Of a stretch of 64,000 nucleotides of DNA, positions 6,080 to 40,598 are shown one piece after another; position 1 is the stretch's first letter, and the number at the start of each line of letters is the position of its first letter. Location of the stretch: contig CAZSGP010000001.1 of the NCBI GenBank assembly GCA_964606485.1, positions 161,085-225,084 on the forward strand, read 5' to 3'. The notes under the pieces are model-generated. The model ran no database searches and was not told the DNA's origin. It worked only from the letters and a program-made list of their open reading frames with translations. The stretch is from an uncultured Planctomycetia bacterium. Lineage in GTDB: Bacteria > Omnitrophota > Gorgyraeia > 2-02-FULL-51-18. Made by a program: the position numbers and the translations under genes.

Positions 6080-7630
6080 ATGAATCAAAGGAGTGAACGG
6101 GGTTGGCTGCTAGGGATCTTCGTTTTAGCAGTTGCATTGCGATGGGTGGCGTTTTCCGGGGTTTTTGGGTCCGATGATCTCATTTTCTCGAAGCTTGCCA
6201 CCAAAATGGCCAGCGGTTCCTGGAAAGCGGTGGATCCAAGTGATAGCCCTATTATGAAAAACCGCCTTGGATTTATCGTGCCGGTGGCGGCATCCATAAA
6301 ATGGATAGGCGTTAATGAATGGGGGATTTCGTTCTACCCATTTTTAGTCTCAATTCTGGGGGTTCTCCTAGCGTTTGTAGCCGGAAAATCTTTTTTTGGA
6401 CCAAAAGCCGGATTGATTGCAGCGCTGCTTCAGGCGCTACTTCCGATTGATTTGCAGTTAGCCAGTCAGTGCTTGTCAGATTTGCCCGCAGCTTTTTATT
6501 CCAGTATAGGAATTTTTCTAATGTACCGTGCGTGCGTGAGTGCTTCGCGTCAAAAAATACTAAGCGCTCTAGCGGGAATGAGTTTTGGAATCTCGTACTT
6601 AAACCGAGAGAACGTGGTTTATATGATTCCGTTGGCCGCAGGGATGCTGTATTGGGCTTGGAGGCTCGGACGAAAGAACGTCATTTTCTTTTTTATCGCC
6701 GCATTCGGCGCCGTCGGACTTTTGGAAGCGACGTATTATCACTGTTTCACCGGGGATGCTTTTTATCGCTATCACGTTACGGAAAATGTTTATTTTGCAC
6801 GCTACTCCGACCCTTCCGCTAAGTTTGACCCTAGTCGGCCCACACACGGATTTTTCTTTTTTCCAAAAAGAAGCGAATTTACCGGTAGCAGCGCGCAGTA
6901 TTTCATGATTCTAGCTAAGCGCATTTTTAAAGAGGGGCCGCAGCAAATATTCATGAGCTGGGACTATATATACATTCCTTTGGTCGCCGCGATCGGTGCT
7001 TTTTATGCAGGTTTTCGTCGGTTAAAGCCATTTTATTTTCCAGTGATTTGGTTTATTTGGTCCGTTGCAGTTTATAATTTTGGTTCTAGTAGTTTGAAGG
7101 AATATCAACCATTAGCTGTGGCGCCGCGTTATTTTTACCCGCTAGTTTTTCCAGCCATTCTTTTAACGGGTGGTTTTTTGGATAGGCTTTTTTCGCGTGG
7201 GTCGATTTTGGATTCCGACTGGCGTAAAGAGCGTTTCTTCTGGGGAACTCTTTTAGGCGGTCTGATGTGTTGTGTATTTAGCTTGGCCTTTATTTCTACT
7301 CTGCGGTCGGTGCCATACGGGCAATTTGAAAAAAAAGTGAGCAAGGTTTTAAAACCTTCCGACCTGATTTACACAGACTCTAAATCGCCGGACACACTTG
7401 AATTTTTTTGGGGTTATCCGTCTAAAATGAATTTTTTTGAATTTTCAAAACAAAGCTCGGAAAGCATTCCCGAGGGCGCTTATATTTTAATCAACGAGAA
7501 TAAGCTCGCTTATTTATATGGGTACTATCGAAAGTCATACCCTGAATTTTACGGGAAGATTCCTTTGGATTGGAAAGTAATTTTAGAAATACCCGGTAAA
7601 GGCGCAGTCTACAAAAAAGGGAGCGTTTAA
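6080..7630 (+). CDS. Polytopic GT-C glycosyltransferase, GT39/GT83-like (PMT/ArnT family; uses polyprenyl-phosphate-sugar donors)
   Basis: N-terminal RGWLLGIFVLAVALRWVAFSGVFGSDDLIFSKLA (first TM plus DD/DE loop typical of PMT/ArnT-type GT-C); ~11 predicted hydrophobic segments. Good SD (GAGGAG) 7 nt upstream of the ATG. Confidence 0.65.
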   Translation: MNQRSERGWLLGIFVLAVALRWVAFSGVFGSDDLIFSKLATKMASGSWKAVDPSDSPIMKNRLGFIVPVAASIKWIGVNEWGISFYPFLVSILGVLLAFVAGKSFFGPKAGLIAALLQALLPIDLQLASQCLSDLPAAFYSSIGIFLMYRACVSASRQKILSALAGMSFGISYLNRENVVYMIPLAAGMLYWAWRLGRKNVIFFFIAAFGAVGLLEATYYHCFTGDAFYRYHVTENVYFARYSDPSAKFDPSRPTHGFFFFPKRSEFTGSSAQYFMILAKRIFKEGPQQIFMSWDYIYIPLVAAIGAFYAGFRRLKPFYFPVIWFIWSVAVYNFGSSSLKEYQPLAVAPRYFYPLVFPAILLTGGFLDRLFSRGSILDSDWRKERFFWGTLLGGLMCCVFSLAFISTLRSVPYGQFEKKVSKVLKPSDLIYTDSKSPDTLEFFWGYPSKMNFFEFSKQSSESIPEGAYILINENKLAYLYGYYRKSYPEFYGKIPLDWKVILEIPGKGAVYKKGSV

Positions 7631-8319
7631 TGAGCCAGGATAACTACAGCCGCAGTGTGCAAACCTGTTTAGATTGCGGCGTCGGTGTATTTGACCCGGA
7701 TCGAGATAGGGTGTGGAAAGTCATTTGCCGTTATTTACAGCCTTATGTTCCCGCGAGCGGAAGCGTGCTGGATTTGGGTGCAGGGTACTGCTCATTCATC
7801 AATAATATTGCCGCAAAAGATAAACATGCCATGGATTTATATGCAGGTTTCACGACTCATGCGGCCCAGGGTGTTCGGACCAGAGTGGGTAGCTGTGAAG
7901 ATCTAAACGCATACGCATCCGAGAGTATGGATGTAATTTTTGCCAGTAATTTAGTTGAGCATTTGCACAAAGACGAAATTGACCGGATGTTTGACAGTGT
8001 TTTAAAAGTTCTCAAACCCGGAGGGCGCTTGATACTGATTCAACCGAATTTCAAATACAGTTACCGGGAATATTTCGATAATTACACGCATGTTTCAATT
8101 TTTACCGAAGTGTCGCTCGCGGATTTCTTGATTGTCAAAGGTTTTGAGATTGAAAAAATAGAGGCCAGGTTTTTGCCGACCAAAATGAAAAGCCGGTTTC
8201 CAAAGTGGCCGTGGCTTGTGGCGCTTTATCTAGGGTTGCCGGTTCGACCCTTTGCCGGGCAAATGCTTGTGATCGCCAAAAAATCTAAATCTGGGAGCGC
8301 ATCGCATGTGGAACGGTAA
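7630..8319 (+). CDS. Class I SAM-dependent methyltransferase
   Basis: VLDLGAGYCSF (motif I) and LKPGGRLILIQPN (post-I/II region). Confidence 0.7.
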   Translation: MSQDNYSRSVQTCLDCGVGVFDPDRDRVWKVICRYLQPYVPASGSVLDLGAGYCSFINNIAAKDKHAMDLYAGFTTHAAQGVRTRVGSCEDLNAYASESMDVIFASNLVEHLHKDEIDRMFDSVLKVLKPGGRLILIQPNFKYSYREYFDNYTHVSIFTEVSLADFLIVKGFEIEKIEARFLPTKMKSRFPKWPWLVALYLGLPVRPFAGQMLVIAKKSKSGSASHVER

Positions 8320-9061
8320 AAAAGTATCAGTCGCGCTGCCCACTTACAACGAAGCGCTTTCAATTGAAGAAGCGATTAACGGATTTTTTAAGACCGGAGT
8401 GGTGGATGAAGTAATTGTGTGCAACAACAACGCCGCAGCCGGCACCTCTGAGGCTGTCGCAAAGACTAAGGCTAGAGAAGTGTTTGAAAGCCGCCAAGGG
8501 TATGGTTGGTCTTGTCGAAAGGCGATGAGCGAAGCGACCGGCGACATTCTGATCTTATCGGAGCCGGATGGATCATTTGACCCGCAAGATGTGTTCAAAT
8601 TGCTAGCCTACTCGGAGGATTTTGATGTGGTGCTTGGAAGCCGCACCAAACGAGAGCTGATCTGGACCGGAGCCAATATGGGATGGTTTATGAAATGGGG
8701 CAACTGGGCGGTAGCAAAATACGTGGAGTTTTCATTCAACACCACCTCGCTGACGGATGTGGGTTGCACCATGCGTTTGATGAACCGAAAAGTTTACGAC
8801 GCCATTCAAGATCGTTTTACGGTGGGAGGGTCTCACTTTGGGCCGGAGCTCATGCTTTTGTGCATCTGGACAAAAGCGCCGCTCATCGAAATTCCGCTTA
8901 ATTACAAGCGTCGCGTCGGAAAAAGCATGGTGACGGGAAATCGCTGGGTGGCCTTTTTGCTGGGACTCGAGATGATTTATTTTATCACTGTGTTTCATAT
9001 CAAGAAAATGGTGGGGATTATCCCAAAATTTAAATATCGGTTTGAAAAACATCACCCATGA
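8306..9061 (+). CDS. GT2 polyprenyl-phosphate sugar synthase (DPM1/GtrB/ArnC-like)
   Basis: KVSVALPTYNEALSIEEAI, ILILSEPDGSFDPQD (DxD), C-terminal hydrophobic tail. Sits immediately after the GT-C gene, which is the usual donor-synthase/transferase pairing. Confidence 0.7.
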   Translation: MWNGKKVSVALPTYNEALSIEEAINGFFKTGVVDEVIVCNNNAAAGTSEAVAKTKAREVFESRQGYGWSCRKAMSEATGDILILSEPDGSFDPQDVFKLLAYSEDFDVVLGSRTKRELIWTGANMGWFMKWGNWAVAKYVEFSFNTTSLTDVGCTMRLMNRKVYDAIQDRFTVGGSHFGPELMLLCIWTKAPLIEIPLNYKRRVGKSMVTGNRWVAFLLGLEMIYFITVFHIKKMVGIIPKFKYRFEKHHP

Positions 9062-11408: not shown

Positions 11409-11440
11409 ATTTTATTCAAAAATTAGTATAATCTTGTCTT

Positions 11441-13934: not shown

Positions 13935-15210
13935 CGTTTTACTAATCGCCCCTTCTTTTTCGCCGTCTAGTTATCCGCCGGCGCTTCGGAATCGTTTATT
14001 TTGTCTGCACCTTAAATCTTTCGGTTGGAACCCGGTTGTCTTGACGGTTGAAACACGATTTTCGGAAGAGCCCTCGGACCCAATCTTCGAAAAAATGATA
14101 CCCGCCGATCTGGAAATTATTCGCACGAAAGCTATCCCGTACCAGTGGACTCGCTTGCTAGGCGTGGGTGATCTGGGACTGCGCTCGTTCTGGAGTCTTT
14201 ACCGCGCCGCGAGCCGCCTGATTCAACAGCGTAAGATTCGCACCGTTTTTATTTCGAGTCCCCCTTGGTATATATTTTTAATCGGAACGCTTCTAAAAAA
14301 GAAGTTTGGCATAAAATTGGTATTAGACTACATCGACCCTTGGGTGGTGGAGAGGGACAGGTTGGCGCCCATATTTTCTAAACGGTATGGCGCTGGTTTT
14401 TTAGCTCGAAGGCTGGATCCGATAGCCGTGAGAAGTGCCGACGCGGTGATTTCTGTATCAGAAAATATTAACGAAACGTTGAAAAATTTATATCCTGAAA
14501 GCGCTCACAAAATTAAGGCCGCCATTCCCTACGGAGTGGAGCTGGAGGACAGTCGTTGGGTTAAAAAGAATCTCAATAATATTTCGGTCTGGCCAAATGA
14601 AAGCCGCAAGATTCACATTGTATATGCGGGGGTTGTTTGGCCTGGGCTCTTACCGGTTTTAGAGATTCTTTTCGAGTCTCTCGCGAAAGTCAAAGCGCGC
14701 AATCCATCTGCTTATCAAATGGGTGCGTGGCATTTTTTTGGCACGTCCTATGCAAGAAATGCCAGCCCCCAAGTTGCGCCGATCGCTGATCGCTTTGGGG
14801 TGAGTGAAGTGGTTCACGAAGAGACGGGTCGCCTGTCTTACCCCATGGCGTTAGCGGTATTAGCCAAAGCCGATATCTTACTGGCGCTAGGTTCTGCGGA
14901 TCCGCACTACGCTTCTTCAAAAATTTATTCCTGCTTAGCCTCCGGTCGCCCTATCTTCGGCCTATACGATAGGCGCAGCTCAGCGGCGGCGGTTCTAGAA
15001 AAGATTCCGGCGGTTCGCCTCATTCGGTTTGATGGGGAGGCGGACCTGAAAAACCTTGTCGAATCTATCTCGACCCAGATAGAAAATTTTGAGTCGCTCG
15101 CGCGTCAGGACATTAAAATTGATGATTCCGTTTTGGAAGCCCGCAGTGCAAAAACAATGACCGCCGAGCTTGTGAAAGTTTTTGAACTTCTTCAAGGCGA
15201 CCCAGTATGA
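13927..15210 (+). CDS. GT-B fold glycosyltransferase (GT4-like)
   Basis: MHNVLLIAPSFSPSSYP... N-domain and a Rossmann-like C-domain. I prefer the start at 13927 (8-nt overlap) over the in-frame ATG at 13888. Confidence 0.5.
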   Translation: MHNVLLIAPSFSPSSYPPALRNRLFCLHLKSFGWNPVVLTVETRFSEEPSDPIFEKMIPADLEIIRTKAIPYQWTRLLGVGDLGLRSFWSLYRAASRLIQQRKIRTVFISSPPWYIFLIGTLLKKKFGIKLVLDYIDPWVVERDRLAPIFSKRYGAGFLARRLDPIAVRSADAVISVSENINETLKNLYPESAHKIKAAIPYGVELEDSRWVKKNLNNISVWPNESRKIHIVYAGVVWPGLLPVLEILFESLAKVKARNPSAYQMGAWHFFGTSYARNASPQVAPIADRFGVSEVVHEETGRLSYPMALAVLAKADILLALGSADPHYASSKIYSCLASGRPIFGLYDRRSSAAAVLEKIPAVRLIRFDGEADLKNLVESISTQIENFESLARQDIKIDDSVLEARSAKTMTAELVKVFELLQGDPV

Positions 15211-15968
15211 AAAACGGTCTTATAAAGCGCTGTCTCACAGCGCGCGTTTTTAAATTGGGCTCAATCTGGAGGATTTGGTTTGGATTATGCCGCGGAATGA
15301 AGATCAGAATATCACCGTCGATGGGGCGATCCGTTTTAAAGGGATACGAAAATAGAAGCCAGCGGTTTTTGCGCGGAAAAATCCGTAAAGGAATGACGGT
15401 CTACGATATCGGCGCCAGCGCCGGCCACTACGGCTTATTTTTCGGCGCCCAAGTCGGTAGTAAGGGTCGTGTGATTTGTTTTGAACCGGTTCCCGCGGTT
15501 TTCGAAGAGCTTATTTTTAATATTCGGCTGAATGGATTGAGTCATGTCACTGGTTATCCTTACGCTTTGGGGGATCGCGACGGCAGAGAAACCTTTCAAC
15601 TGGATCCCGATTTTCAAACTATGGGAAAAATTAGCCGCGTTGAACCGACTTTTAAAATTCCGAATCCTACGGATCTTTTGGTGGAGATGCGTCGCCTGGA
15701 TTCCCTGAAGGCTATTTTAGCTCCACCGGATCTTTTAAAAATTGATACGGAAGGATCTGCGGGCTTGATCTTAGAGGGTGCAAAGGAAATGATTAGGCTA
15801 CATAAACCCCGACTGTTTATTGAGTTTCATGGTCCAGAGGAAAGAAGAAGCGTCTCCAGCGTGCTCAAAGAGCTCGGTTACGTGGTTCAAGATATGGACG
15901 GCCACCCGGCTGAGGACATGGTTCTAGAAAAAATAACGCCCATTTGGTGTTTTAAGCGCGATGAATAA
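15207..15968 (+). CDS. FkbM-family methyltransferase (copy 3)
   Basis: YDIGASAGHYGLFF and LKIDTEGSAGLIL. Confidence 0.8.
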   Translation: MKNGLIKRCLTARVFKLGSIWRIWFGLCRGMKIRISPSMGRSVLKGYENRSQRFLRGKIRKGMTVYDIGASAGHYGLFFGAQVGSKGRVICFEPVPAVFEELIFNIRLNGLSHVTGYPYALGDRDGRETFQLDPDFQTMGKISRVEPTFKIPNPTDLLVEMRRLDSLKAILAPPDLLKIDTEGSAGLILEGAKEMIRLHKPRLFIEFHGPEERRSVSSVLKELGYVVQDMDGHPAEDMVLEKITPIWCFKRDE

Positions 15969-17085: not shown

Positions 17086-18500
17086 ATCCCGTCGGCCCCA
17101 AGCCTAGGGGCGGCTACTTTTTTGGAATGACGCCGATTGAGGCGACGATTTCGTTTATTGTGGCTATTTTAGGAGGGTTTGTTCTTGAGAATTTATTTCC
17201 CACGAGATCCTGGTGGGCTTTGACAGGCATTATCTTTAGTTTTTTTGTGCTCGGCCACATGTATTTTACCTCAACTCGTTTTATCGTTCTGCCGGAGTTT
17301 ATTACGCTGATCGCCTGTGTAAATTGGGTGGTGGCTCCGTGGTTAGCCTATTTTTACCCGCCTGGTTTTACCGAGTTTAGAATGGTTATCCCAATGAGTG
17401 AATATCTTTCCTTCACCGTTCCTTGCGTGATGGCGCTATGGTTAGGGCTGCACTTGCCCTTGCGTTACCGCGGAATCATCGGCTCTCGAATGGTGATTCC
17501 GGTGGTGTCCCGCAGGGCCTATTTTTTGATCGACCTGGTCATTTTATTCAGCCTTATTCTATCGGCAAGCTCTCATCACTTGCCTCGGATACTTTCGTTT
17601 TTATATTACGTGGTTGCGAATCTACGATTTGTATGCGTGTTTATTTTGATGTTTTTATCGGCCCGAGGCTGGCCGCTAAGAGCTGCGGTGGTGTATATCA
17701 GCTTGTTTTCAGAATCAGCCTCAGGCGGCGTTTTTTATGAATCCATTATGTGGCTTGGATACATGATGATCTGCGTGGCTTACACGCATAAGTGGCGCTT
17801 AAGATTAATTGCTGCGCTCATCATTGCTTTTTGGGCTGTTACAACGCTCAATGTAGTGAAGATGGGATACCGTGAGATTATCGGAGAGAAAAAATACACG
17901 CAAATTCAGAAACTTTCACTACTTGGACAAATGATGGTGGGTCAGGTGACCAACGACCGCCACTGGAAAACGGAGGTTGTGTTTGGTGATAAGCTCGTGC
18001 GATGGAATCAGGGTTGGATTATTGCGCGCGTGATGGCAACGGTTCCGACGGTTGAACCCTACGCGCAAGGCGAAACCATTTATACCGCCATCGGCGCTTC
18101 GATTCTGCCACGCATTTTTTCACCCAATAAGGTCACCGCAGCATCCAAGGAGGTTTTTGAAAAATACACGGATATTCGATTATCCGAAGGAACTTCAATG
18201 GCGCTAGGAACCGCCGGAGAGTTTTACGCTAATTTCGGAAAGATGGGCGGAATTATCGCTGTTGGTATCTACGGCTGGGTCATTGGTTTTGCTTTTTCGC
18301 AGTTTGCGAGATTTTCGCGCAGCAATGCACTCTGGTGGGCTTGGGTGCCATTTGTGATGTTTTCTGCCCTTGTTTGTGAGTGGAATCTAGCGGATATTTT
18401 AAATCACATCATCAAATCGCTTGTTGTGATGGTGTTGGCGGTCAAAATGCTTCCGGTGTTTCAAAAATACCTTTTTCCAAAGGTTCCCCGTGTTTCATGA
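17076..18500 (+). CDS. Polytopic membrane protein, candidate repeat-unit polymerase (Wzy/EpsG-like)
   Basis: About 10-12 hydrophobic segments with a large central extracytoplasmic loop. No catalytic motif recognised, so the call rests on topology and context only. Confidence 0.4.
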   Translation: MPINPVGPKPRGGYFFGMTPIEATISFIVAILGGFVLENLFPTRSWWALTGIIFSFFVLGHMYFTSTRFIVLPEFITLIACVNWVVAPWLAYFYPPGFTEFRMVIPMSEYLSFTVPCVMALWLGLHLPLRYRGIIGSRMVIPVVSRRAYFLIDLVILFSLILSASSHHLPRILSFLYYVVANLRFVCVFILMFLSARGWPLRAAVVYISLFSESASGGVFYESIMWLGYMMICVAYTHKWRLRLIAALIIAFWAVTTLNVVKMGYREIIGEKKYTQIQKLSLLGQMMVGQVTNDRHWKTEVVFGDKLVRWNQGWIIARVMATVPTVEPYAQGETIYTAIGASILPRIFSPNKVTAASKEVFEKYTDIRLSEGTSMALGTAGEFYANFGKMGGIIAVGIYGWVIGFAFSQFARFSRSNALWWAWVPFVMFSALVCEWNLADILNHIIKSLVVMVLAVKMLPVFQKYLFPKVPRVS

Positions 18501-19342
18501 GTGACTTTACGGGCATAAAAAAGCTACCGTTTGATTTGCAGTGTTTTCAAAAGCTGGATTTTCCAAGAAAGCTTGGGCTTGGGGAGAAGCTTTTTTCACG
18601 ACGGCTATCCCGGTGGGGAATTGTCCCGGTTCAAACGGGCGCAGGTATTCCCTGGAAGTTGGACTTAAGAAATTCCACGCATCGGTGGATTTTGTACGGC
18701 AGTTATGATCCTAGTTTTTTAAAATGGGCCAAAAAATTTTTGCCGGCGAATGGTGTGGTGGTGGATTCGGGTGCCAATATCGGCCAGACCGTGATGTATC
18801 TGGGTCAAGCCGTTAAAGGTGGAAAGCTATTTGCGTTTGAGCCGGGCAAAAAGCAGGCTGACTGGCTAACGGAATGCGTGCAACGCAATTTAACCGCACT
18901 GCCCGGGGTGGAAGTCGTTCGATGTGCTTTAGGGGATCACGAAACGGATTTATATTTAAATGACACATGGGTTTCCGAGCGTTTCCACGGAGGCTCAAGT
19001 CAGATTTCCGACACTACTGGTGAACGCGTTCAGGTGCTGAGGCTTGGGGATTTCTTGGAGAAGAGAGGGATTGAAAGCATTGATCTTTGGAAGTTAGATG
19101 TCGAAGGCTATGAGCTTCAGGCGTTAAGGGGAGCCGAGGCCCTGCTAAAGGCAGGTCGAATTCGGGCGTTGTACGTCGAGCTTTTTCGTCAAGAAGGGGA
19201 AGCTTACTACCAGAACGGAGTGGAGATTCGAAGATATCTTCAACAATTTGGGTACCGGCCGTGGGTTTTTAAAAAATATTGCGCTGTTCCGCAATTAGAG
19301 AGAGATACTTCCTTGGCTGCAGACGGGTTATTTTTGCGTTAA
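18497..19342 (+). CDS. FkbM-family methyltransferase (copy 4)
   Basis: VVDSGANIGQTVMYLG and WKLDVEGYELQAL. I prefer the start at 18497 (ATGA overlap) over the in-frame ATG at 18380, which would overlap the membrane-protein gene by 120 nt. Confidence 0.8.
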   Translation: MSDFTGIKKLPFDLQCFQKLDFPRKLGLGEKLFSRRLSRWGIVPVQTGAGIPWKLDLRNSTHRWILYGSYDPSFLKWAKKFLPANGVVVDSGANIGQTVMYLGQAVKGGKLFAFEPGKKQADWLTECVQRNLTALPGVEVVRCALGDHETDLYLNDTWVSERFHGGSSQISDTTGERVQVLRLGDFLEKRGIESIDLWKLDVEGYELQALRGAEALLKAGRIRALYVELFRQEGEAYYQNGVEIRRYLQQFGYRPWVFKKYCAVPQLERDTSLAADGLFLR

Positions 19343-20374
19343 ATGAAGACCCTTATTTTTAGAATTGGGTACCTGGGCGACGCAGTTGTGTCCTTGCCGG
19401 TTTTTAGGGCTATACGGCGGCAGAACCCATCCGACGAAATTATTTTACTGACGCATGCCAGTTCAAATAAAGCTTACTTGCCGGAAATTTTGAAAAAACT
19501 TCACTTAATTGACCAGGTGATTGAATATCGGTCGCCTATGGAAATTGTCAATTGGATCACAACCGTTTTTAGAATTCGCCGCCAAAAACCTGATCGCCTT
19601 ATCTATTTGCCTCCGAGTCGGCGAAAAATCGGTGCCGTTAAAAGGGACCAATTATTTTTTAAATGCTGCGGCATTAGACGTGTTGAGGGTTGCCGGGAAT
19701 TTGAATCGGTCGGGCTTCGTGACAGCGGGGGCCGCTTGCTTCGCTTGCCCCGTGAGAGCGAATTCTTAGTCCGTCACGCTCAAAAAATTGGAATAAAAAT
19801 TTCCGACGAAGACTATGTCAGGCCGGATGAGTTTGTGGCTAGGGTCCAGTGCGTACGCGTAGCGGAATTCCTGGGGAGCGGTAAAGCCGGCATTCGGATC
19901 GCTTTTTGTGTGGGCGCCAAAACAACCGCGCAGAAATGGCCGGTGGAATATTTTAGATCTTTGGGGCATCTTTTGATGGAGTCTATGAAAGTGGAGCTAA
20001 TTCTCGTGGGCTCTGCCGAAGACCGGTCAAATGCTCAAAGTTTGGTAGAGTCCTGGGGTGGCGGGAAAAATTTGTGCGGGGAATTGAATCTTTTTGAAAC
20101 AGCGGAAGTGTTTAGGCATTGCGATCTCTATGTTGGAAATGACACCGGACCTATGCATTTGGCGGCGTTAATAAAAATTCCCTGCGTGGGAATTTTTTCG
20201 GGGCGAAACAATCCCGGTCTGTGGGAGCCGGCGGGAGAGCGCCACACGGTTTTAAGAAAAAGCGTGCCTTGCGAGGGGTGTGAATTGAATATCTGTCCGG
20301 TCAAAGGCCATCCTTGTTTGGCACTGATAACTCCGAAGGAAGTGTTTGAAGCGGTGAAAAAATATTTCCAATGA
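19343..20374 (+). CDS. GT9-family glycosyltransferase (heptosyltransferase-like), second copy
   Basis: C-terminal LYVGNDTGPMHLAALIKIPCVGIFSG (GT9 motif). Confidence 0.7.
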   Translation: MKTLIFRIGYLGDAVVSLPVFRAIRRQNPSDEIILLTHASSNKAYLPEILKKLHLIDQVIEYRSPMEIVNWITTVFRIRRQKPDRLIYLPPSRRKIGAVKRDQLFFKCCGIRRVEGCREFESVGLRDSGGRLLRLPRESEFLVRHAQKIGIKISDEDYVRPDEFVARVQCVRVAEFLGSGKAGIRIAFCVGAKTTAQKWPVEYFRSLGHLLMESMKVELILVGSAEDRSNAQSLVESWGGGKNLCGELNLFETAEVFRHCDLYVGNDTGPMHLAALIKIPCVGIFSGRNNPGLWEPAGERHTVLRKSVPCEGCELNICPVKGHPCLALITPKEVFEAVKKYFQ

Positions 20375-21516
20375 AAATATTGCATGTGATCGGAGATTTT
20401 AACCCGCGCTCGGGGGGTACCGTGGCCGCTGTCAGCGGAATGGCCCAGGCCCAGTCTCAGTTGGGACACCGGGTGAGCATCGCCACGACAAAGTACGCCT
20501 GGAAAGATCGCTACCGGATCGAAGGAGTAGATTTCTTTGTCTATGACTGTAATTTTCCGAAGTGGCGCTGGTCATGGGGCTTGATGATGAATCTCAGCCG
20601 TTTGATTCGAAGCGTTGATGTGGTTCATGTTCACGGTGTTTGGGAATTTCCCATTTGGTGGGCATCTGTTTTATGCGGTTTTTTCAAAAAGCCCTTTATT
20701 TTGACGCCGCATGGAATGCTGGATCGATCATCTCTGTCGAAAAGTTATTGGAAAAAAAGAGTTTATATGACGCTGTTGGGATATCAGGTTTTAAAAGGAT
20801 CCCGCGCAATTCATTTTACTTCTTCGGGGGAGCTTAAGCATTCCGGGTATGCGGAGGCCTCTAAAAGTGTGTGCGCGCCCTTGGGGTTGTTGGAATCTTT
20901 TTATGAAAAGGAGCCGGACCCCGAAGCATTTAAGCGGCGATTTTCCCGCTTCAAAGGACATCAGTTGGTTCTTTTTCTTGGCAGGGTTCACGCGAAGAAG
21001 CAGCCCGATCTTCTTATCAAGGCATTCTCAAATATAAGCCACGATTTTCCGGACGCTCTCCTCATCATCGTTGGGCCCGGGGAGCGCTCTTACGTGAATC
21101 AATTAAAAAAACTTTCAGAATTCTTGGGAATTAGGCAGAGGGTGGTTTTTATCGGAATGCTTCAAGGTGAAATCGTAAAGGAGGCCTATCGCGCAGCAGA
21201 GGTATTTGTGCTGCCCAGCCTTCAAGAAAACTTTGGTTTTACCATCGTGGAAGCGTTGGCCATGGCGTGCCCGGTTATCCTGAGTCCATCAGTCAATCTT
21301 GCGGAGGAGATTCAACAAGCTTCGGCAGGATTTATCACGGAACTAGACGAAAATTCTCTGAGCTCAACCTTGAGAAAAAGTTTAACGCAAAGCGGCCTGC
21401 TTCGGCAGATGGGCGAGAATGGAAAAAAGTACGTTCTCGAGAACTTTAAATGGGATAAAACAATTCTTGGAATTCTCGGGGTATACACCCGCGTATTGAG
21501 TGAGCATCATTCTTAA
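20371..21516 (+). CDS. GT4-family glycosyltransferase
   Basis: VLPSLQENFGFTIVEALAMACPVILS. Confidence 0.8.
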   Translation: MKILHVIGDFNPRSGGTVAAVSGMAQAQSQLGHRVSIATTKYAWKDRYRIEGVDFFVYDCNFPKWRWSWGLMMNLSRLIRSVDVVHVHGVWEFPIWWASVLCGFFKKPFILTPHGMLDRSSLSKSYWKKRVYMTLLGYQVLKGSRAIHFTSSGELKHSGYAEASKSVCAPLGLLESFYEKEPDPEAFKRRFSRFKGHQLVLFLGRVHAKKQPDLLIKAFSNISHDFPDALLIIVGPGERSYVNQLKKLSEFLGIRQRVVFIGMLQGEIVKEAYRAAEVFVLPSLQENFGFTIVEALAMACPVILSPSVNLAEEIQQASAGFITELDENSLSSTLRKSLTQSGLLRQMGENGKKYVLENFKWDKTILGILGVYTRVLSEHHS

Positions 21517-22216
21517 ATCTAAAATAATTTCGCTGAGAGGTCATCACATTTGCCTTGATTTGCTGAGCAGCCAATCAATTGTCGTGGACCTTGGAGCGAA
21601 TACCGGAGAATTTTCAACCGCGTTAAGCGCTTTGGTGGGTTGTAGATGCCACGCGGTTGAACCGTCCATTAAAAATTTTCAAAAAATCCGAGAAACTATG
21701 CAAATACACAAATACTGCTTGGCTATAGGACGTTCTGACGGGGATAAAATGCTTTATATTTCAAAAAATCCAGAGGCAAACCGTTTGGCGCTTATTTCTG
21801 GTGAGGATATCGTAGGAGAACAGAGCGTCCCGTGCATGCGGCTTGAAACATTTTTGAAGAAGAACTCCATCCCTCAAGTTGACTTGCTCAAAGTGGATAT
21901 TGAGGGCGCTGAAATGGATTTACTGGAATCTTTAAGCGACGAAGCGCTTCTTCAAATCCAGCAGCTGACTATAGAGTTTCATGATTTTATACCGGAATTT
22001 AACTGTCGAGATAAAGTAAGGGAGGTTATCCGCAGAATGGAACGGATTGGATTTTATTGTATTAATTTTTCTTTAAGGCATCATGTGGATGTGCTGTTTA
22101 TTAATAAAGCTAAAGCAAATAAATCAAATCATGAATTATTTTATATGAAACACATCTTTAGAAGTATTTTATGGTTTAAAAAAATTATGAGAAAAATTTC
22201 CTATGGACGCCAATAA
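21500..22216 (+). CDS. FkbM-family methyltransferase (copy 5)
   Basis: VVDLGANTGEFS and LKVDIEGAEMDLL. The ORF's first codon is GTG at 21500, 17 nt into the previous gene. Confidence 0.75.
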   Translation: MSIILKSKIISLRGHHICLDLLSSQSIVVDLGANTGEFSTALSALVGCRCHAVEPSIKNFQKIRETMQIHKYCLAIGRSDGDKMLYISKNPEANRLALISGEDIVGEQSVPCMRLETFLKKNSIPQVDLLKVDIEGAEMDLLESLSDEALLQIQQLTIEFHDFIPEFNCRDKVREVIRRMERIGFYCINFSLRHHVDVLFINKAKANKSNHELFYMKHIFRSILWFKKIMRKISYGRQ

Positions 22217-22961
22217 GCCTCTAAAAGATCTTCAGAATTTATGTCGGTATATTTTAATGCCGGGTCCGGATCTTTTTACCTGGCGGCGCGTGCGGCTTAA
22301 GTCTCATTGGAAAAAAGGTCCTCGGCGATTTTTGGATGCGGGTTCCGGCAATGGCTGGTTCTCATACTTGGCTTACCGTTCGGGAGCCACCGTCGTTGCG
22401 GTGAATCATGACGAGGAGCAGGTTCATAAATCAAAATTGTTTTACAACGAATGGCTGGGCATCCCGGAGGATAGGCTGTGTTTTAAAAAAATAAGCCTTT
22501 ATGACCTTGGCGGGCTCGAAGGCGGTTTTGATGAAATTATTTGTTATGAAACACTTGAGCATGTGAAGGATGATTTAAAAGTCTGCCAGCTTTTCTGGAA
22601 GTTGCTTAAGCCCGGCGGAACGCTTCATCTGTGTTGCCCTTACGCCGAACATCCCAAATGGAAAAATGAGATTTTGGATCTTGAAGAGAAAGGGTATCAC
22701 GTAAGGGCGGGCTATACCGAAAAATCCTACCACGCTCTTCTGGGGCTCGCTGGTTTTGTGGCTGATCGATTTGATGGTGTTGGCGGCCCGATGCTGGTTA
22801 GAATTCATTTCTTTATTTTAAATATGCAGCTCAAGTTTGGAAATTGGATGGCTATGCCGTTTTTGGTGCTTTTTTTACCGGTGATAGGGCTGGATGAACG
22901 TTCGCCAAAAGTGCCGTTTAGTCTTTATGTACAGGCTTTGAAGCCAAGAGACATCCGATGA
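22203..22961 (+). CDS. Class I SAM-dependent methyltransferase
   Basis: FLDAGSGNGWFS (motif I), LKPGGTLHLCCP. Confidence 0.65.
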   Translation: MDANKPLKDLQNLCRYILMPGPDLFTWRRVRLKSHWKKGPRRFLDAGSGNGWFSYLAYRSGATVVAVNHDEEQVHKSKLFYNEWLGIPEDRLCFKKISLYDLGGLEGGFDEIICYETLEHVKDDLKVCQLFWKLLKPGGTLHLCCPYAEHPKWKNEILDLEEKGYHVRAGYTEKSYHALLGLAGFVADRFDGVGGPMLVRIHFFILNMQLKFGNWMAMPFLVLFLPVIGLDERSPKVPFSLYVQALKPRDIR

Positions 22962-24154
22962 GTTTTGAGCGGGGGTGTGTGATGGTGGTTCACCCGGGCG
23001 GTCAGCATTCTTATCAAACCGTTCTAGGACTTCAAAAATCAGGACTGCTTCATAGCTATGTGACCGGTTTTTACTACAAGCGATCAAGTTTATGGGTAAA
23101 AATACTGGAGTGTGTTCCAGATTTTTTACTAAAGCGATTCCGACGTAAAATGTCTTTGAAGTTTCACCCGCAAATTGAGGACGAGGCGGTTTGTGTTTTG
23201 CCATGGGGAGAGCTTGTCGGAACGCTTGGTTTTTTTCGTTATAACCGAAAGATCCGCTGGCTTGACGGGCAGGCCGCCAAAAGGGTGTTGTGCCAAAAGC
23301 CCAAAGTGGTGATTTGTTACGATACGTGCGCTGTGCGCACATTTGCAGCCGCCAAGAAGGTTGGAGCGGTTTGTATTTTAGATCAAACGATTGGTCATTT
23401 AAGTTATGCAGAAAAAGTTTTTTTACAATATGGGTTAACGGTGGATATTTCGTCCGAAATGATGGATGAAGCTCATCTTGAGACGCAACTCGCCGATCAC
23501 ATTGTCGTCGGCTCTGAATATGTGCGCCGCACGCTTCTGGAAGCCGGCGTGCCCGATGCTAAGATTTTTGTGTTGCCGTACGGCGTCGATACACAAGCTT
23601 TTCATCCTGCTCCGAGAAAACCCGACGGAGAATTTCGCATGCTTTTTGCGGGACGAATCAACCATCGCAAAGGAATTCAGCATGTTTATCAGGCATTTGA
23701 GGAGCTGGAAAAAGAGTGTCCGGATCTAAGGCTTCATTTAGCTGGGACAGTGTGGGGAGATACGACCTGGATGAAGCGCTTTGGTGAAAAATTGGTCTAT
23801 CACGGCCAAGTGCCTCACAGCAGGCTTTCGTCGGTGATGCAGTCCTGCGACATCTTTGTCCATCCGTCGCTGCACGAGGGTTCTGCGCTTTCTATTTATG
23901 AAGCCATGGCCTCCGGGCTACCGGTGGTCACAACGTCTAACAGTGGTTCGGTGGTGGAGGATGGTGTGAGCGGATTCATTGTGGAGACCGGAGAGGTTCA
24001 GTCCTTGCGAGACAAAATTCTTAAATTGAGAAATGACGAGTTCCTGCGAAAAAAAATGGGGGAGAGCGCCCGGCGCAGGGCCGAACAATTCACTTGGGAA
24101 ATTTATCAAAACCGTTACGCACAAAAGATAAACGAAATGGTTAAAAAAGCGTGA
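22958..24154 (+). CDS. GT4-family glycosyltransferase
   Basis: FVHPSLHEGSALSIYEAMASGLPVVTT. Confidence 0.8.
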   Translation: MSFERGCVMVVHPGGQHSYQTVLGLQKSGLLHSYVTGFYYKRSSLWVKILECVPDFLLKRFRRKMSLKFHPQIEDEAVCVLPWGELVGTLGFFRYNRKIRWLDGQAAKRVLCQKPKVVICYDTCAVRTFAAAKKVGAVCILDQTIGHLSYAEKVFLQYGLTVDISSEMMDEAHLETQLADHIVVGSEYVRRTLLEAGVPDAKIFVLPYGVDTQAFHPAPRKPDGEFRMLFAGRINHRKGIQHVYQAFEELEKECPDLRLHLAGTVWGDTTWMKRFGEKLVYHGQVPHSRLSSVMQSCDIFVHPSLHEGSALSIYEAMASGLPVVTTSNSGSVVEDGVSGFIVETGEVQSLRDKILKLRNDEFLRKKMGESARRRAEQFTWEIYQNRYAQKINEMVKKA

Positions 24155-25662
24155 ATCAGCTTATCACGAAAAAAGTCTCACAAAATGAATTAGCCTGGGT
24201 TTTTTTTATTTTAACCTCGTTTCTTTTTATAAATTTCATCACGTCCGCTTATTCCCCAATTCCTTGGTATGACGAAGTGTTCTATACAAGCCCCGGGGTA
24301 AATTTGTATCTGGGGAAGGGATTTACTTCCGCTGCGTGGCCGGGTTGGAGCGCCGAAAATTTTTGGGCGGCTTACGTCCCGCTTTACCCGCTTCTTTTGT
24401 GCGTATGGCTTAAAATTTTTGGCTTTGGAATTATGGCAGCGCGGTCCATGAATTATTTCTTTGCGGTTCTAATGGGTCTTTTGCTGTGGTTCTCATCCCT
24501 GCGTTTTCAATGGATTCATAAGGCGCATGGACGGGTCATTTTTCTAGCCGCTATGCTATTTAATTTTGATGTCGCTCTCAGCTACCGCAGTGGACGTCAG
24601 GACGGCTTGGCAATGCTTTTGGCTTCCATGGCACTTTTTTCGCTATCTATTCATCGGAAGTGGATTCGATACACAGCCCTTTTCTTGGTCTCTATTCTTT
24701 GCATGTGGACACAGTTGCCGCTGGCGGTTTATGGCGTAGTCCTCGGATTTTTATTCATGCTGATTTTCGACCGGCGGTTTTTTGCTGAATACGTAATTAT
24801 GATCATTGGTTTTTTTGCAGGTTTTTTTCTGGTTCTAAAATTTTATAGTTTTTTTGGAGAAGCCGATGCATTCATGCAGTACAACAACCGCTATATTTTC
24901 TGGGGCCAGAATATTTTAAGCAAATTTCAAAACTTTTACATCGAATTTCCGCCGCCCGGTTCGCTCATTTTAGCGGGAGGTCTCATATTGTTTTTTATTT
25001 TTGCAAAAAAATATTTTTTAGATTTTCATTTGAGACTTATTATTTTCGGCTTTTCTTCGAGTATTATTGTTCCTCTCTCCATGCATTTTGCCGGGCACTT
25101 CCACCAATTTTATTATTGGTTGATTTTTGCGCCTCTCGGGGTTTGTGCGGGGATTCTGGCGTTTGACACGCATTTCTCTCATCATAAAAAATTTCAAAGA
25201 ATTTTGATTGCGACTCTGATCCTCACAGTCGCTACGGGCCTTCCGACGCGACTGGGATTAATGGCGATTGAGAAAGAGTCGCGCGATCACTCGAAGGTGG
25301 AAAAATTTGTGAATAACCACATCGCCGAAAGCGATACGGTTTATGCGGATCTCTTGGTTTATTATGCGGTGAAGAAAGTCTCCAAGGAAGCTTATATGAG
25401 CACCTACACTTTAAACCAGGAAGAGTCGAAAAAAATCGATGTCATGGTGATCCGAACGGATAATTTCATGAAAAATTTTATGCGCTTTAGGGGGCACTGG
25501 AAACTTGTGGGACGTTTTGAAGCGCCGTCTTCTTGGAGCGGTCGCATGAGAACGGGCGGAAAAATTTATAATGTTCCAAAATACCGTTTAGCCATTTACC
25601 GACGATACGACTCCTTGCAGCCCGAGACCAAATATTTTGATCCCGAAGGGAGCGCGCCTTGA
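24151..25662 (+). CDS. Polytopic GT-C glycosyltransferase, GT39/GT83-like (second PMT/ArnT-family member)
   Basis: YSPIPWYDEVFYTSPGVNLYLGKGF (the first-loop DE motif of PMT-type GT-C) and more than 10 hydrophobic segments. GTG start in GTGA overlap. Confidence 0.6.
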   Translation: MNQLITKKVSQNELAWVFFILTSFLFINFITSAYSPIPWYDEVFYTSPGVNLYLGKGFTSAAWPGWSAENFWAAYVPLYPLLLCVWLKIFGFGIMAARSMNYFFAVLMGLLLWFSSLRFQWIHKAHGRVIFLAAMLFNFDVALSYRSGRQDGLAMLLASMALFSLSIHRKWIRYTALFLVSILCMWTQLPLAVYGVVLGFLFMLIFDRRFFAEYVIMIIGFFAGFFLVLKFYSFFGEADAFMQYNNRYIFWGQNILSKFQNFYIEFPPPGSLILAGGLILFFIFAKKYFLDFHLRLIIFGFSSSIIVPLSMHFAGHFHQFYYWLIFAPLGVCAGILAFDTHFSHHKKFQRILIATLILTVATGLPTRLGLMAIEKESRDHSKVEKFVNNHIAESDTVYADLLVYYAVKKVSKEAYMSTYTLNQEESKKIDVMVIRTDNFMKNFMRFRGHWKLVGRFEAPSSWSGRMRTGGKIYNVPKYRLAIYRRYDSLQPETKYFDPEGSAP

Positions 25663-27410
25663 ACATTCTAGGCCTCAACGCTTTTCACGGAGATTCATCT
25701 GCCTGTCTCGTGGTGGACGGAAAACTTGTTGCGGCGGCCGAAGAGGAGCGTTTTCGGCGCGTTAAGCATTGGGCTGGATTTCCCAAGGAAGCCATTGCGT
25801 ATTGTTTGAGAGAAGGTGGAATTTCTTTAGCAGAGATCGATAAAATTGCTATTAATCGCAACCCGAACGCGAATCTCGCCAAAAAATTTTTGTACGCGGC
25901 CTTGCATCAACCGAGCTTCCATAGTGTCTATGGCCGCATTTTAAACTCCGCCAAATTGAAACGGATCGATCTTCTAACTGCAGCCGCGCTTGGAGTGGAT
26001 CCAAAAATTCTGAAAAATAAAATTGTTCACGTCGAGCATCACCGGGCGCATCTAGCGAGCGCTTTTTTTGTTTCGGGTCTTGAGCAGGCCGCACTCGTAT
26101 CGGTAGATGGTTTTGGCGACTTTGTGAGCACCCAGTGGGGCACGGGGCATCATTCTCAGATTACCGTTAGAGATCAGGTTTATTACCCGCATTCGCTTGG
26201 GATTCTCTATTTGGCGTTGACGCAATTCTTAGGATTTCCTCACTATGGAGATGAGTACAAGGTGATGGGCCTTGCTCCTTACGGAAAGCCGGTTTATCTA
26301 GATCAAATACGAAAATTAATTCATCTTAAAAAGAATGGGTTATTTGAGCTAAATCTGGAATATTTCACGCATCACTCAAAAGGCGTTTCGATGAGCTGGG
26401 AGGATGGGCAGCCCGAAATATCTCCGGTATTTTCTGACGCGCTTGAAAAATTATTTGGACCGGCGAGGCTGCCTAGTGAAATGATTGCACCCGTTCACGA
26501 AGATATAGCGGCCTCTCTCCAGGCTGTCTATGAAGAAGTTTTTTTTCATCTGTTAAATTACGTGCAGAAAAAAACAGGGCTTAAGAATTTGTGTCTAGCC
26601 GGTGGTTGCGCCATGAACAGCGTGGCGAATGGGAAAATTTATCAGAAGACTCCTTTCGAAAAAATTTATGTGCAATCGGCTGCGGGTGATGCGGGCGGAG
26701 CGATTGGCGCTGCGTTTTACACAAGCCATCAACTTGAAAAGACAAAGCCTTCATTTGTAATGGATCATGCTTATTGGGGCCCTGAGTTTAGCGCAGAAGA
26801 AATTTTTCAGCAGCTCGATATTAAAAGGCGAGAGATTGAAAAAGAAAATTGTGTCATTAAAAAAATTGACTCTCAAGCGGATCTGTGTCGGTTGGCGGCT
26901 CAAGCCATCATTGAAGGGAAGGTCGTGGGTTGGTTCCAGGGGAGAATGGAGTGGGGACCGCGCGCCTTGGGAAACCGCAGTATTTTGGCCGATCCTCGGC
27001 GCGGCGATATGAAACAAATTTTAAATTCTAAAATCAAACACCGCGAATCTTTTAGGCCCTTTGCGCCTTCTATATTAAGAGAAGAAGTTAAGAATTGGTT
27101 TGAAACCGACGACGATGTGCCCTTTATGCTGGAAGTGTTTCAAATTAAAGCGGAGAAGCGAGCGCTCGTTCCGGCTGTCACCCATGTGAATGGCTCAGGT
27201 CGCCTTCAAACGGTGTCCTCATCGCAAAACCCTCTTTATCATGCGCTGATCACAGAGTTCTATAAAAAAACCGGCGTGCCCATGCTTCTGAATACCTCTT
27301 TTAATGAAAACGAACCGATGGTTTGCCGGCCCGAAGAAGCGCTAGATTGCTTTTTGAGAACAAAAATGGATGTTTTGGTTTTAGGTCATTTCTGCCTTGA
27401 GCGATTTTAA
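25659..27410 (+). CDS. O-carbamoyltransferase (NodU/CmcH family)
   Basis: MNILGLNAFHGDSSACLVVDGKLVAAAEEERFRRVKHWAGFP is the canonical N-terminus of NodU/CmcH carbamoyltransferases. TTG start in TTGA overlap. Confidence 0.85.
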   Translation: MNILGLNAFHGDSSACLVVDGKLVAAAEEERFRRVKHWAGFPKEAIAYCLREGGISLAEIDKIAINRNPNANLAKKFLYAALHQPSFHSVYGRILNSAKLKRIDLLTAAALGVDPKILKNKIVHVEHHRAHLASAFFVSGLEQAALVSVDGFGDFVSTQWGTGHHSQITVRDQVYYPHSLGILYLALTQFLGFPHYGDEYKVMGLAPYGKPVYLDQIRKLIHLKKNGLFELNLEYFTHHSKGVSMSWEDGQPEISPVFSDALEKLFGPARLPSEMIAPVHEDIAASLQAVYEEVFFHLLNYVQKKTGLKNLCLAGGCAMNSVANGKIYQKTPFEKIYVQSAAGDAGGAIGAAFYTSHQLEKTKPSFVMDHAYWGPEFSAEEIFQQLDIKRREIEKENCVIKKIDSQADLCRLAAQAIIEGKVVGWFQGRMEWGPRALGNRSILADPRRGDMKQILNSKIKHRESFRPFAPSILREEVKNWFETDDDVPFMLEVFQIKAEKRALVPAVTHVNGSGRLQTVSSSQNPLYHALITEFYKKTGVPMLLNTSFNENEPMVCRPEEALDCFLRTKMDVLVLGHFCLERF

Positions 27411-27481
27411 TCAGAGATCCCTAAGACCGTATTTTATGGGTAGGGTATTTATCGGGTTTCACTGGCCACCTGGCGATTAAG

Positions 27482-28195
27482 ATGAAACTGTCCATTATTA
27501 TTCCCACGTATAACGAAGAAATGACGATTGAGGAGCTTGTTTCCTTGGTGCAAAGCGTCAAGTATCCCGTGGAGTATGAAATTATTATCGTGGATGACGC
27601 TTCGATCGACCGCACATTCGAGAGGGAGATTATGCTAAAGCTCAGGGATCAATCCGAGCAAATCCGAATTTTTAAAAATCAAATCAACCGCGGTAAAGGT
27701 TTTTCGGTGCGCAAAGGGATTCGAAGGGCCAAGGGCGACATCATCATCGTTCAAGACGCTGATCGCGAGTACGATCCGCGAGAAATTCCAAAACTGATCG
27801 AGCCGATCTTGAAAGGAGCCGAGCAGGTTGTGTATGGCAGTCGATTTATGACTTCTTCTCGTCCGAGGGGGATGGCATTTGCGAATCGATTTGCGAATCA
27901 GTTTTTGACGATGCTGACCAATTGGATGTTTGGTTTAAAGCTGACGGATATGGAAACGTGCTACAAGGCGATTCGAGCAGATTTGTTAAAAAGTCTACCG
28001 CTCCAAGAAAATCGATTTGCGTTTGAGCCGGAAATCACCGGGCTACTTGCGCTTAAGCATGTTCCGATTATGGAGATGCCGATTTCTTATTCGGGAAGAA
28101 CTTCAAAAGAAGGAAAAAAGATTAAAGCGGTTGATTTTTTATTTGCGATATGGGCGCTGGTCCGGTGCAGGTTTTGGAGCGGGTTAGGAGATTAG
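27482..28195 (+). CDS. GT2 polyprenyl-phosphate sugar synthase (DPM1/ArnC-like), second copy
   Basis: MKLSIIIPTYNEEMTIEE, IIVQDADREYDP (DxD). Confidence 0.75.
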   Translation: MKLSIIIPTYNEEMTIEELVSLVQSVKYPVEYEIIIVDDASIDRTFEREIMLKLRDQSEQIRIFKNQINRGKGFSVRKGIRRAKGDIIIVQDADREYDPREIPKLIEPILKGAEQVVYGSRFMTSSRPRGMAFANRFANQFLTMLTNWMFGLKLTDMETCYKAIRADLLKSLPLQENRFAFEPEITGLLALKHVPIMEMPISYSGRTSKEGKKIKAVDFLFAIWALVRCRFWSGLGD

Positions 28196-31586: not shown

Positions 31587-31589
31587 ACA

Positions 31590-40537: not shown

Positions 40538-40564
40538 TCTTCTATCGTATTGAGATTTCTGTAA

Positions 40565-40598
40565 ACAAGGGGGTCTTTCAAGGACCCCCTTGTTTTTT
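40565..40598 (+). terminator. Rho-independent terminator
   Basis: ACAAGGGGGTC-tttcaag-GACCCCCTTGT followed by TTTTTT (11-bp GC-rich stem, 7-nt loop, U-run), 28 nt after the stop at 40537. Confidence 0.8.

Follow-up and report, generated by a model that had tools for sequence, protein, structure and literature searches.

What do the two GT-C-fold membrane glycosyltransferases (GTs) encoded within 64,000 nucleotides (nt) of DNA from an uncultured Planctomycetia bacterium (contig CAZSGP010000001.1, positions 161,085 to 225,084; this whole stretch is called the window hereafter) glycosylate? Each of their genes, here called GTC1 and GTC2, lies close to a gene for a polyprenyl-phosphate sugar synthase (GT2a and GT2b, respectively), and the original prediction was that both pairs are responsible for the O-glycosylation of a giant Thr/Ser-rich protein encoded in the same window, with ArnT-like decoration of a lipid-linked glycan or of lipid A as an alternative. 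Our analysis indicates that the GT2a/GTC1 and GT2b/GTC2 pairs are probably two GtrB/GT-C-type modules, which add monosaccharide branches or caps to the exported polysaccharide of the cluster in which they are embedded. Within the alternative that had been offered, the lipid-linked glycan is the better reading, and clustering with ArnT is not observed. The four open reading frames (ORFs) were confirmed on the + strand and the pairs are real, although calling their members adjacent is slightly loose, as one gene intervenes in each pair:

6080-7630, + strand: GTC1, a GT-C-fold polytopic membrane glycosyltransferase of 516 amino acids (aa), PMT_2 superfamily, ATG start.
7630-8319, + strand: class I S-adenosylmethionine-dependent methyltransferase (Pfam Methyltransf_11/25/23), between GTC1 and GT2a.
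8306-9061, + strand: GT2a, a polyprenyl-phosphate sugar synthase of the dolichol-phosphate mannose synthase (DPMS)/ArnC class, 251 aa (Pfam GT2).
24151-25662, + strand: GTC2, a GT-C-fold membrane glycosyltransferase of 503 aa, with a GTG start that overlaps the upstream stop.
25659-27410, + strand: NodU/CmcH-type O-carbamoyltransferase (Pfam Carbam_trans_N/Carbam_trans_C, E 1e-64 to 1e-74; NCBIfam NodU, 1.9e-46), between GTC2 and GT2b.
27482-28195, + strand: GT2b, a polyprenyl-phosphate sugar synthase of the DPMS class, 237 aa.

The enzyme class of the two donor synthases is clear. Among the sequences of the Protein Data Bank (PDB), GT2a has its best match in ArnC (2.9e-7, over the full length), followed by DPMS, while GT2b matches best the DPMS of P. 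furiosus (5mlz, 4.8e-26, residues 1-234, which is its full length), followed by ArnC and the GtrB homologue sll0501. For both of them the top NCBIfam models are AglJ and dolichyl-phosphate hexose transferase, with all scores below the equivalog cut-offs (for GT2b, 2e-30 with AglJ and 3.5e-19 with PgfS). GT2a has one transmembrane (TM) helix, at its C-terminus (residues 214-232), and GT2b has none. As the two proteins are only 27 % identical, they are distinct enzymes and probably carry different sugars. Since both belong to the lipid-sugar synthase class, the proposal that each pair follows the logic of DPM1 plus PMT is sound at the level of enzyme class (a DPMS-class GT2 together with a GT-C), and the pairing is recurrent in the loci of relatives. 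The gene that separates GTC1 from GT2a also has counterparts, as a similar methyltransferase adjoins the GT-C or the GT2 gene in two of these loci (P0005 and L003).

Both membrane proteins show the traits of the GT-C_A superfamily: they are polytopic by hydropathy, they have an acidic pair after the first TM helix (TM1), and they are similar in structure or in profile to solved GT-C enzymes. GTC1 matches the Pfam family PMT_2 (E 4e-10), and an exhaustive phmmer search gave 1659 relatives at E ≤ 1e-3; word-indexed homologue searches returned 2-5 relatives per GT-C, which understates the size of the family. PMT_2 is matched by 52 of 53 aligned full-length relatives, PF02366 weakly by 19 and PMT_4TMC by none. 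The acidic pair of GTC1, D32-D33, comes right after TM1; D32 is kept in at least 90 % of the 53 sequences, and the complete pair is invariant in 8 sequences. The C-terminus is an extracytoplasmic domain of about 110 aa, and the sole match of the family profile among PDB sequences is the TM core of the archaeal AglB (E 2.5e-4). By these matches, GTC1 is assigned to the broad PMT_2 family of Pfam, within the GT-C_A superfamily.

For GTC2, neither Pfam nor NCBIfam offers a matching model at a threshold as loose as E ≤ 5, and there is no meaningful match among PDB sequences for the protein alone or for its family profile. Its acidic pair, D41-E42, also follows TM1 and is invariant in 5 sequences. 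The predicted structure of GTC2 comprises about 12 long helices, with the helices of the first external loop (EL1) at residues 48-54, 68-74 and 78-90, and ends in a small C-terminal alpha/beta domain; it resembles the solved PMTs at the level of fold only (10-11 % identity). The five best structural neighbours in a fold search act, in this order, on a lipid-linked oligosaccharide, a protein, a polysaccharide, a protein and lipid A, and because these acceptors differ, this search cannot tell acceptors apart. Although the GTC1 and GTC2 proteins have no pairwise BLAST similarity, the profiles of their families can be aligned (hhalign 96.7 %, E 4e-10) along 435 columns, a stretch that takes in the C-terminal domain of about 110 residues, and D41-E42 and D32-D33 are aligned to one another. 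GTC2 is, therefore, a member of the GT-C_A superfamily, in a subfamily missed by the current Pfam and NCBIfam models. This subfamily recurs in at least 61 environmental contigs of a metagenome scan, and it is a candidate new CAZy/Pfam family, whose members would modify glycans in the periplasm.

The PMT type proposed for these proteins was not borne out. Neither GT-C matches PF02366 or PF16192 (PMT_4TMC) at E ≤ 1e-3, MIR is absent, and Pmt1, Pmt2 and Pmt4 are not returned by single-sequence or profile searches of all PDB sequences. Likewise, neither of them has a significant match to ArnT in NCBIfam, PDB or profile searches. As judged from sequence comparisons, neither GT-C belongs to GT39 PMT or to GT83 ArnT.

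The genes around the pairs provide further information. Both pairs are embedded in a glycan cluster that spans at least 44 kb, with no gaps and with all genes in one direction. Its features in the window, with families from Pfam scans where these gave a match, are the following:

6-30576, + strand: glycan-assembly gene array, in which stops and starts overlap or are at most 71 nt apart.
2768-3868, + strand: alpha/alpha-toroid protein, cytoplasmic, with no signal peptide or TM helix.
3870-5228, + strand: GT4, a conserved neighbour of the GTC1 family.
17076-18500, + strand: polytopic membrane protein of 474 aa, in which hydropathy shows about 9-10 hydrophobic segments; a large loop covers about residues 265-390.
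22958-24154, + strand: GT4 (Pfam Glycos_transf_1), whose stop overlaps the GTC2 start.
29401-30576, + strand: WecA-like polyprenyl-phosphate N-acetylhexosamine-1-phosphate transferase (Pfam Glycos_transf_4, 9e-30; NCBIfam ECA_wecA, 5e-27).
30639-35059, + strand: GldA-like ABC ATPase (294 bits), fused GldF-like permease/GldG-like auxiliary protein (815 aa) and DUF4340 protein.

Altogether, the array contains GT2, two GT9 and about nine GT4 genes, six FkbM and two class I methyltransferases, the carbamoyltransferase, WbpB/WbpD/WbpI-like sugar-nucleotide enzymes, the unassigned polytopic protein and the WecA-like initiator, and the cytoplasmic GTs of the cluster amount to about 15. The array extends at least 9 kb upstream of the window, as seen in the same contig from an SRA assembly (locus L009), where there are more GT2s, a DegT aminotransferase, an ATP-grasp enzyme, methyltransferases and an ABC ATPase of 413 aa, whose best families are the TagH and Wzt/RfbE glycan exporters (1e-38 to 1e-43, with a partial sequence). 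With its WecA-like initiator, Wzt-like ATPase and GT array, the cluster has the genes of an O-antigen-like polysaccharide that is WecA-initiated and depends on an ABC transporter. It is presumed that the WecA-like enzyme initiates the undecaprenyl-pyrophosphate-linked glycan that would serve as the acceptor, and the eight methyltransferases, together with the carbamoyltransferase, predict an unusually heavy O-methylation and carbamoylation of this glycan.

Regarding individual members of the cluster, the FkbM methyltransferases are found within 817-22961 on the + strand (817-1626, 5225-6055, 15207-15968, 18380-19342 and 21500-22216, plus one RfbT-like), with more methyltransferases upstream, in L009. 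The alpha/alpha-toroid protein has weak matches to SQHop_cyclase_C, prenyltransferase and GH127. For the polytopic protein encoded at 17076-18500 there is no match in Pfam, NCBIfam or the PDB, and a 2-sequence profile does no better, but a homologue of it (22 % identical) is encoded beside GT4, DPMS-like GT2 and GTC2-like genes in a metagenomic locus (L033, 5425-6855). It is a possible candidate for an unrecognised Wzy/WaaL-type polymerase or ligase, or for an enzyme of the O-oligosaccharyltransferase type. The two GT9 (heptosyltransferase-like) genes lie at 1623-2771 and 19343-20374 on the + strand. As enzymes of the GT9 type include cytoplasmic autotransporter heptosyltransferases, these genes would be a putative alternative route to adhesin glycosylation. 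Finally, the Gld-type ABC system is found directly downstream of the WecA-like gene and is apparently co-transcribed with the cluster, in a host that is apparently not a Bacteroidota.

The link of these GT-Cs to donor synthases and glycan GTs is also observed across genomes. In the GTC2 family, for which 26 loci of at least 8 kb were counted out of the 61 loci of the metagenome scan, a DPMS-like GT2 is encoded in 10 of the 26 and, in most of those 10, it lies beside the GT-C. GT4 genes are present in 17 of the 26 loci and GT9 in 3, while 10 have a homologue of the GT4 encoded at 22958-24154 in the window; such homologues are also found in L004 and L005. For instance, L033 reproduces the window on a small scale (GT4, FkbM, a gene similar to 17076-18500, GT4, GT4, DPMS-like GT2 and a GTC2-like gene), and in L004 the GTC2 homologue lies inside a Wzx/Wzy_C/GT9/GT4 locus. 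In L051/L052 (1123-4326) and in L020 (1126-8776), a pair of GTC2-family genes, in tandem or close together, is accompanied by one or two genes for a DPMS-like GT2, which suggests that module duplication is a recurrent way of diversifying glycan branches.

For the GTC1 family, homologues with 32-33 % identity adjoin toroid (E 1e-50 to 1e-55), GT4 and Wzy_C genes in L003 and L007, where the toroid homologues are the following:

L003, 7230-8435: toroid homologue beside a GTC1-family gene and GT4.
L007, 10275-11510: toroid homologue beside a GTC1-family gene and GT4.

The toroid, GT4 and GTC1-family genes, thus, form an uncharacterised three-gene module that is present in unrelated contigs. A genome search with a 3-sequence alignment of GTC1 yielded 2 loci. 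The donor-synthase neighbour of the GTC1 relatives is either a DPMS-like GT2 (L007 and L008) or a UbiA protein with a HAD phosphatase (L002 and L003), and the UbiA protein of L002 is a full-length homologue of the mycobacterial decaprenyl-phosphate phosphoribosyltransferase (DPPRS; E 4.3e-31).

Systems of this kind have been described in other bacteria. The GtrA/GtrB/GtrC type includes the O-antigen glucosylation of Salmonella and Shigella, GacI/GacL of S. pyogenes, and CsbB-YfhO and GtlA-GtlB of B. subtilis/Listeria (PMC11127046, 10.1101/180810, PMC5836110). At the class level the window would follow the same scheme, with a DPMS/GtrB-class GT2 predicted to make the undecaprenyl-phosphate (Und-P)-sugar and a polytopic GT-C-type enzyme predicted to transfer it outside the cytoplasm; additionally, the genes lie within or beside the cluster of the acceptor glycan, the association is conserved across genomes, and there are ABC-transporter-type features around it. 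Unlike those systems, the window has no GtrA/SMR/MATE gene, contains two modules in one cluster and has a modifying gene wedged in each pair. The synthases also differ, as the GtrB type has a TM anchor of 1-2 helices (PMC11127046), whereas GT2b has no TM helix and GT2a has one, and both are short. The GT-Cs have no detectable sequence similarity to the solved members.

A second comparison can be made with the GT136 system of Citrobacter youngae O1/O2, for which Kelly et al. (2024) described a three-component system for pentofuranose side chains of the O antigen, with DPPRS and a HAD phosphatase as the donor arm (PMC11127046). That system performs, as is proposed here, the post-polymerisation addition of side chains to an O polysaccharide by a GT-C, and the closest homologues of GTC1 (32-33 % identity) are encoded beside a DPPRS-type UbiA and a HAD phosphatase. 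In contrast, the donor synthase of the window is a GT2 instead of a UbiA dependent on phosphoribosyl pyrophosphate, which implies a hexose-type sugar derived from a nucleotide sugar, and a MATE flippase is absent from the window. Additionally, ORF12 (GT136) has a beta-rich carbohydrate-binding module (CBM), whereas the C-terminal domain of the GTC2 model is small and alpha/beta. The pairing of the GTC1 family with either a GT2 or a DPPRS-type synthase extends the “three-component” concept of Kelly et al. to environmental bacteria. For ABC-transporter-dependent glycans this class of mechanism has been established by Kelly et al. (PMC11127046) and, reportedly, also by Rush et al. (10.1101/180810) and Rismondo et al. 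(PMC5836110).

With these precedents, a sequence of events can be proposed for the window. An O-antigen-like glycan would be built on undecaprenyl pyrophosphate at the cytoplasmic face by the WecA-like initiator and the GT4, GT2 and GT9 enzymes and, to judge from the gene content, would be heavily O-methylated and O-carbamoylated and probably contain 2,3-diacetamido sugars. A Wzm/Wzt-type ABC transporter, also expected from the gene content, would export it. Meanwhile, as their families suggest, GT2a and GT2b would each load a monosaccharide, taken from a nucleotide sugar, onto undecaprenyl phosphate, and the resulting Und-P-sugars would be flipped across the membrane. GTC1 and GTC2 would then attach these sugars, as side branches or caps, to the glycan that has been exported, using the Asp-Asp or Asp-Glu pair of the first periplasmic loop. 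The donor sugars, the acceptor and the timing of this scheme are inferred, as is the role of the interleaved enzymes; the wedged methyltransferase and carbamoyltransferase may modify the branch sugar or the lipid-linked donor. Lastly, the glycan would presumably be ligated to the lipid A-core or to another anchor, perhaps by the 17076-18500 protein.

Several observations weigh against this proposal. No GtrA/SMR/MATE flippase is found among the Pfam families of any ORF in the window, and the array at 6-30576 leaves no unassigned coding space above 71 nt for one, although it may be encoded elsewhere. Wzm was not seen and lies beyond the stretch of DNA read, while the ABC system inside the window is GldA/GldF/GldG-like instead of Wzm/Wzt. 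The AlphaFold model of GTC1, all-helical to about residue 420, is of low confidence (3-sequence alignment, pLDDT 41.7) and unusable; because it is so poor, GTC1 has no placement by fold.

If two such modules operate here, the mechanism is a known one in a rich setting, with two lipid-donor/GT-C modules in one large, heavily methylating polysaccharide cluster of an uncultured lineage. The periplasmic addition of side sugars is already known, but the two enzyme subfamilies are poorly described.

An ArnT/Rgt/FlmK-like function, in which the sugars would be added to lipid A phosphates, to 3-deoxy-D-manno-oct-2-ulosonic acid (Kdo) or to inner-core residues of the lipopolysaccharide instead of to the polymer, appears unlikely. 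As in the ArnT/ArnC (GT83) system, a GT-C and an ArnC-like GT2 would act together in periplasmic transfer from an Und-P-sugar in a Gram-negative envelope, and ArnC is the best solved relative of GT2a. The cluster contains two GT9 heptosyltransferase-like genes, one GTC2 homologue (P0007) is encoded in a locus with Wzy_C (WaaL-like) and GT9, and another relative (P0008) lies about 5 kb from a PagL gene. However, the missing match to ArnT argues against this function, and the ArnC model of NCBIfam gives only 24 and 64 bits with the two GT2s, far below its cut-off of 529 bits. Pfam scans of all ORFs in the window did not find the companions of ArnT, namely the formyltransferase/decarboxylase (ArnA), the deformylase (ArnD) and the EamA/SMR pair (ArnE/F), and neither a deacetylase nor the pathway for 4-amino-4-deoxy-L-arabinose (Ara4N) is present there. 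Finally, the genes to which translational coupling links the GT-Cs are GT4, methyltransferase and carbamoyltransferase genes of the O-polysaccharide type, and not lipid A genes.

The remaining proposals involve the giant protein, which lies beyond the cluster and the following features:

35447-39925, + strand: secretin operon, coding for an ExeA-like ATPase, a GspC/GspB-like protein, a PilQ/GspD/MshL-like secretin and a coiled-coil tetratricopeptide repeat protein.
After the secretin operon, in the block ending at 40537, + strand: small secreted protein.
40563-40595, + strand: intrinsic terminator with a perfect 15-bp stem.
40674-41909, + strand: Y1-transposase-like gene, whose product (411 aa) joins an N-terminal IS200/Y1-like domain to a TM segment and a domain at the C-terminus.
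42148-42903, + strand: Lys-rich signal-anchor protein of 251 aa, whose end overlaps the giant ORF start in a two-gene unit.

The giant ORF is confirmed: opening at about 42881 on the + strand, it encodes a Sec-type signal peptide and, with at least 7039 codons, continues past the end of the window. Its description as Thr/Ser-rich holds in part, as the enrichment is moderate (12.2 % Thr and 8.7 % Ser), but no window of 20 aa reaches 60 % Ser plus Thr; in the visible 7039 aa the maxima per 20 aa are 50 % for Ser/Thr and 65 % for Ser/Thr/Pro, and there are no poly-Ser/Thr tracts. N-x-S/T sequons occur at the expected frequency, and no significant Pfam domain is found in the protein, whose Thr/Ser content is typical of large beta-rich surface proteins. 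The giant gene is 17.2 kb away from GTC2 and 35 kb away from GTC1. A gap of 387 nt separates the Gld-type system from the secretin operon, and an AT-rich gap of 238 nt separates the transposase-like gene from the two-gene unit. Because the operon, the terminator, the transposase-like gene and these gaps intervene, the giant gene is in a transcription unit apart from both GT-Cs.

A quite improbable possibility is that, in a Gram-negative host, the giant secreted protein forms a single functional unit together with the secretin operon and the glycan cluster, in which the giant glycoprotein would be made either directly by the GT-C/DPMS pairs or en bloc. In the latter variant, the 17076-18500 protein would act as a putative O-oligosaccharyltransferase, moving the whole branched, methylated and carbamoylated glycan to the giant protein. 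If this were true, the product would be a giant surface glycoprotein and GTC2 would found a new GT-C family with a protein-linked role.

It is very unlikely that the GT-Cs perform a PMT-like O-glycosylation in the periplasm, in which the giant protein or other envelope proteins would receive single sugars on their Ser/Thr residues ahead of export. The streptococcal pairs PgfS/PgfM1 and GtrB/PgtC2 do act on surface proteins (PMC12041528, PMC5856776), GT2b scores 3.5e-19 on the PgfS model, and a protein with a Sec signal and 21 % Ser plus Thr is encoded in the same 64-kb window. Those streptococcal systems (PgfS/PgfM1/PgfM2 and GtrB/PgtC2) are similar to the pairs of the window in that a GT2 and a GT-C act outside the cytoplasm, and no other bacterial precedent for the glycosylation of adhesins in this way is well documented. 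Nevertheless, they belong to Gram-positive bacteria, are not embedded in a 44-kb polysaccharide cluster, and act on intrinsically disordered poly-Ser/Thr tracts (PMC12041528), of which the visible 7039 aa of the giant protein have none (at most 50 % Ser/Thr per 20 aa). The GT39 enzymes (yeast Pmt1/2/4 and actinobacterial Pmt, with DPM1/Ppm1) also differ from the GT-Cs of the window, which lack PMT_4TMC and MIR, as well as PF02366 and matches to solved PMTs, are found in a polysaccharide context and would face a substrate without Ser/Thr-rich disorder. Actinobacterial Pmt prefers linkers rich in Pro, Thr and Ser.

Gene order points in the same direction. The GT-Cs are part of the glycan array, and the giant gene is in another transcription unit, 17.2 and 35 kb away behind the secretin operon, the terminator and the transposase-like gene. 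The expected co-occurrence of GT-C pairs with giant genes was not found either: no open frame in about 65 loci of relatives exceeds 1252 aa, as seen with flanks of up to 10 kb (less than the spacing between the GT-Cs and the giant gene of the window), and the conserved neighbours are GT4 glycan genes. Consequently, the giant protein was not upheld as the acceptor, and its presence nearby is no evidence for protein glycosylation.

Most improbable is the synthesis of the backbone itself in the periplasm, with one or both GT-Cs acting processively or initiating branches from an Und-P-sugar as the mycobacterial Emb, Aft and Mpt enzymes do, for although the closest GTC1 homologues are encoded beside a DPPRS homologue, as in arabinan synthesis, and tandem GT-C duplicates exist in L051/L052 and L020, about 15 cytoplasmic Leloir GTs and a Wzt-like exporter already explain a complex polymer, at about 500 aa the GT-Cs are small enzymes without the large CBM-bearing domains found in Emb and AftD, and there is one GT-C per donor synthase.

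Some other features of the region between the cluster and the giant gene deserve mention. The best model for the ExeA-like ATPase is the XrtA/PEP-CTERM-associated ATPase TIGR03015 (175 bits, below the cut-off). A poly-Thr stretch of the secretin (residues 432-451) was considered as a target of O-glycosylation and rejected because it lies inside the Pfam Secretin match (400-566), and not in a low-complexity N-terminal region. After the terminator there is a near-consensus promoter-like site (40610-40638), and the transposase-like gene at 40674-41909 may be a domesticated or RayT-like element that marks the junction between gene blocks. In the giant protein, residues 330-720 approximately hold five or six N-terminal repeats, each of about 75 aa and closing with “ANGxW”, and they are followed by super-repeats of about 730-740 aa, with motifs that recur at 2611, 3351, 4077 and 4805. 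The composition of the DNA changes near 44 kb, where the GC content rises from about 0.44-0.48 to about 0.50 and the GC skew falls from about +0.1 to about 0, and the AT skew turns positive within the giant ORF.

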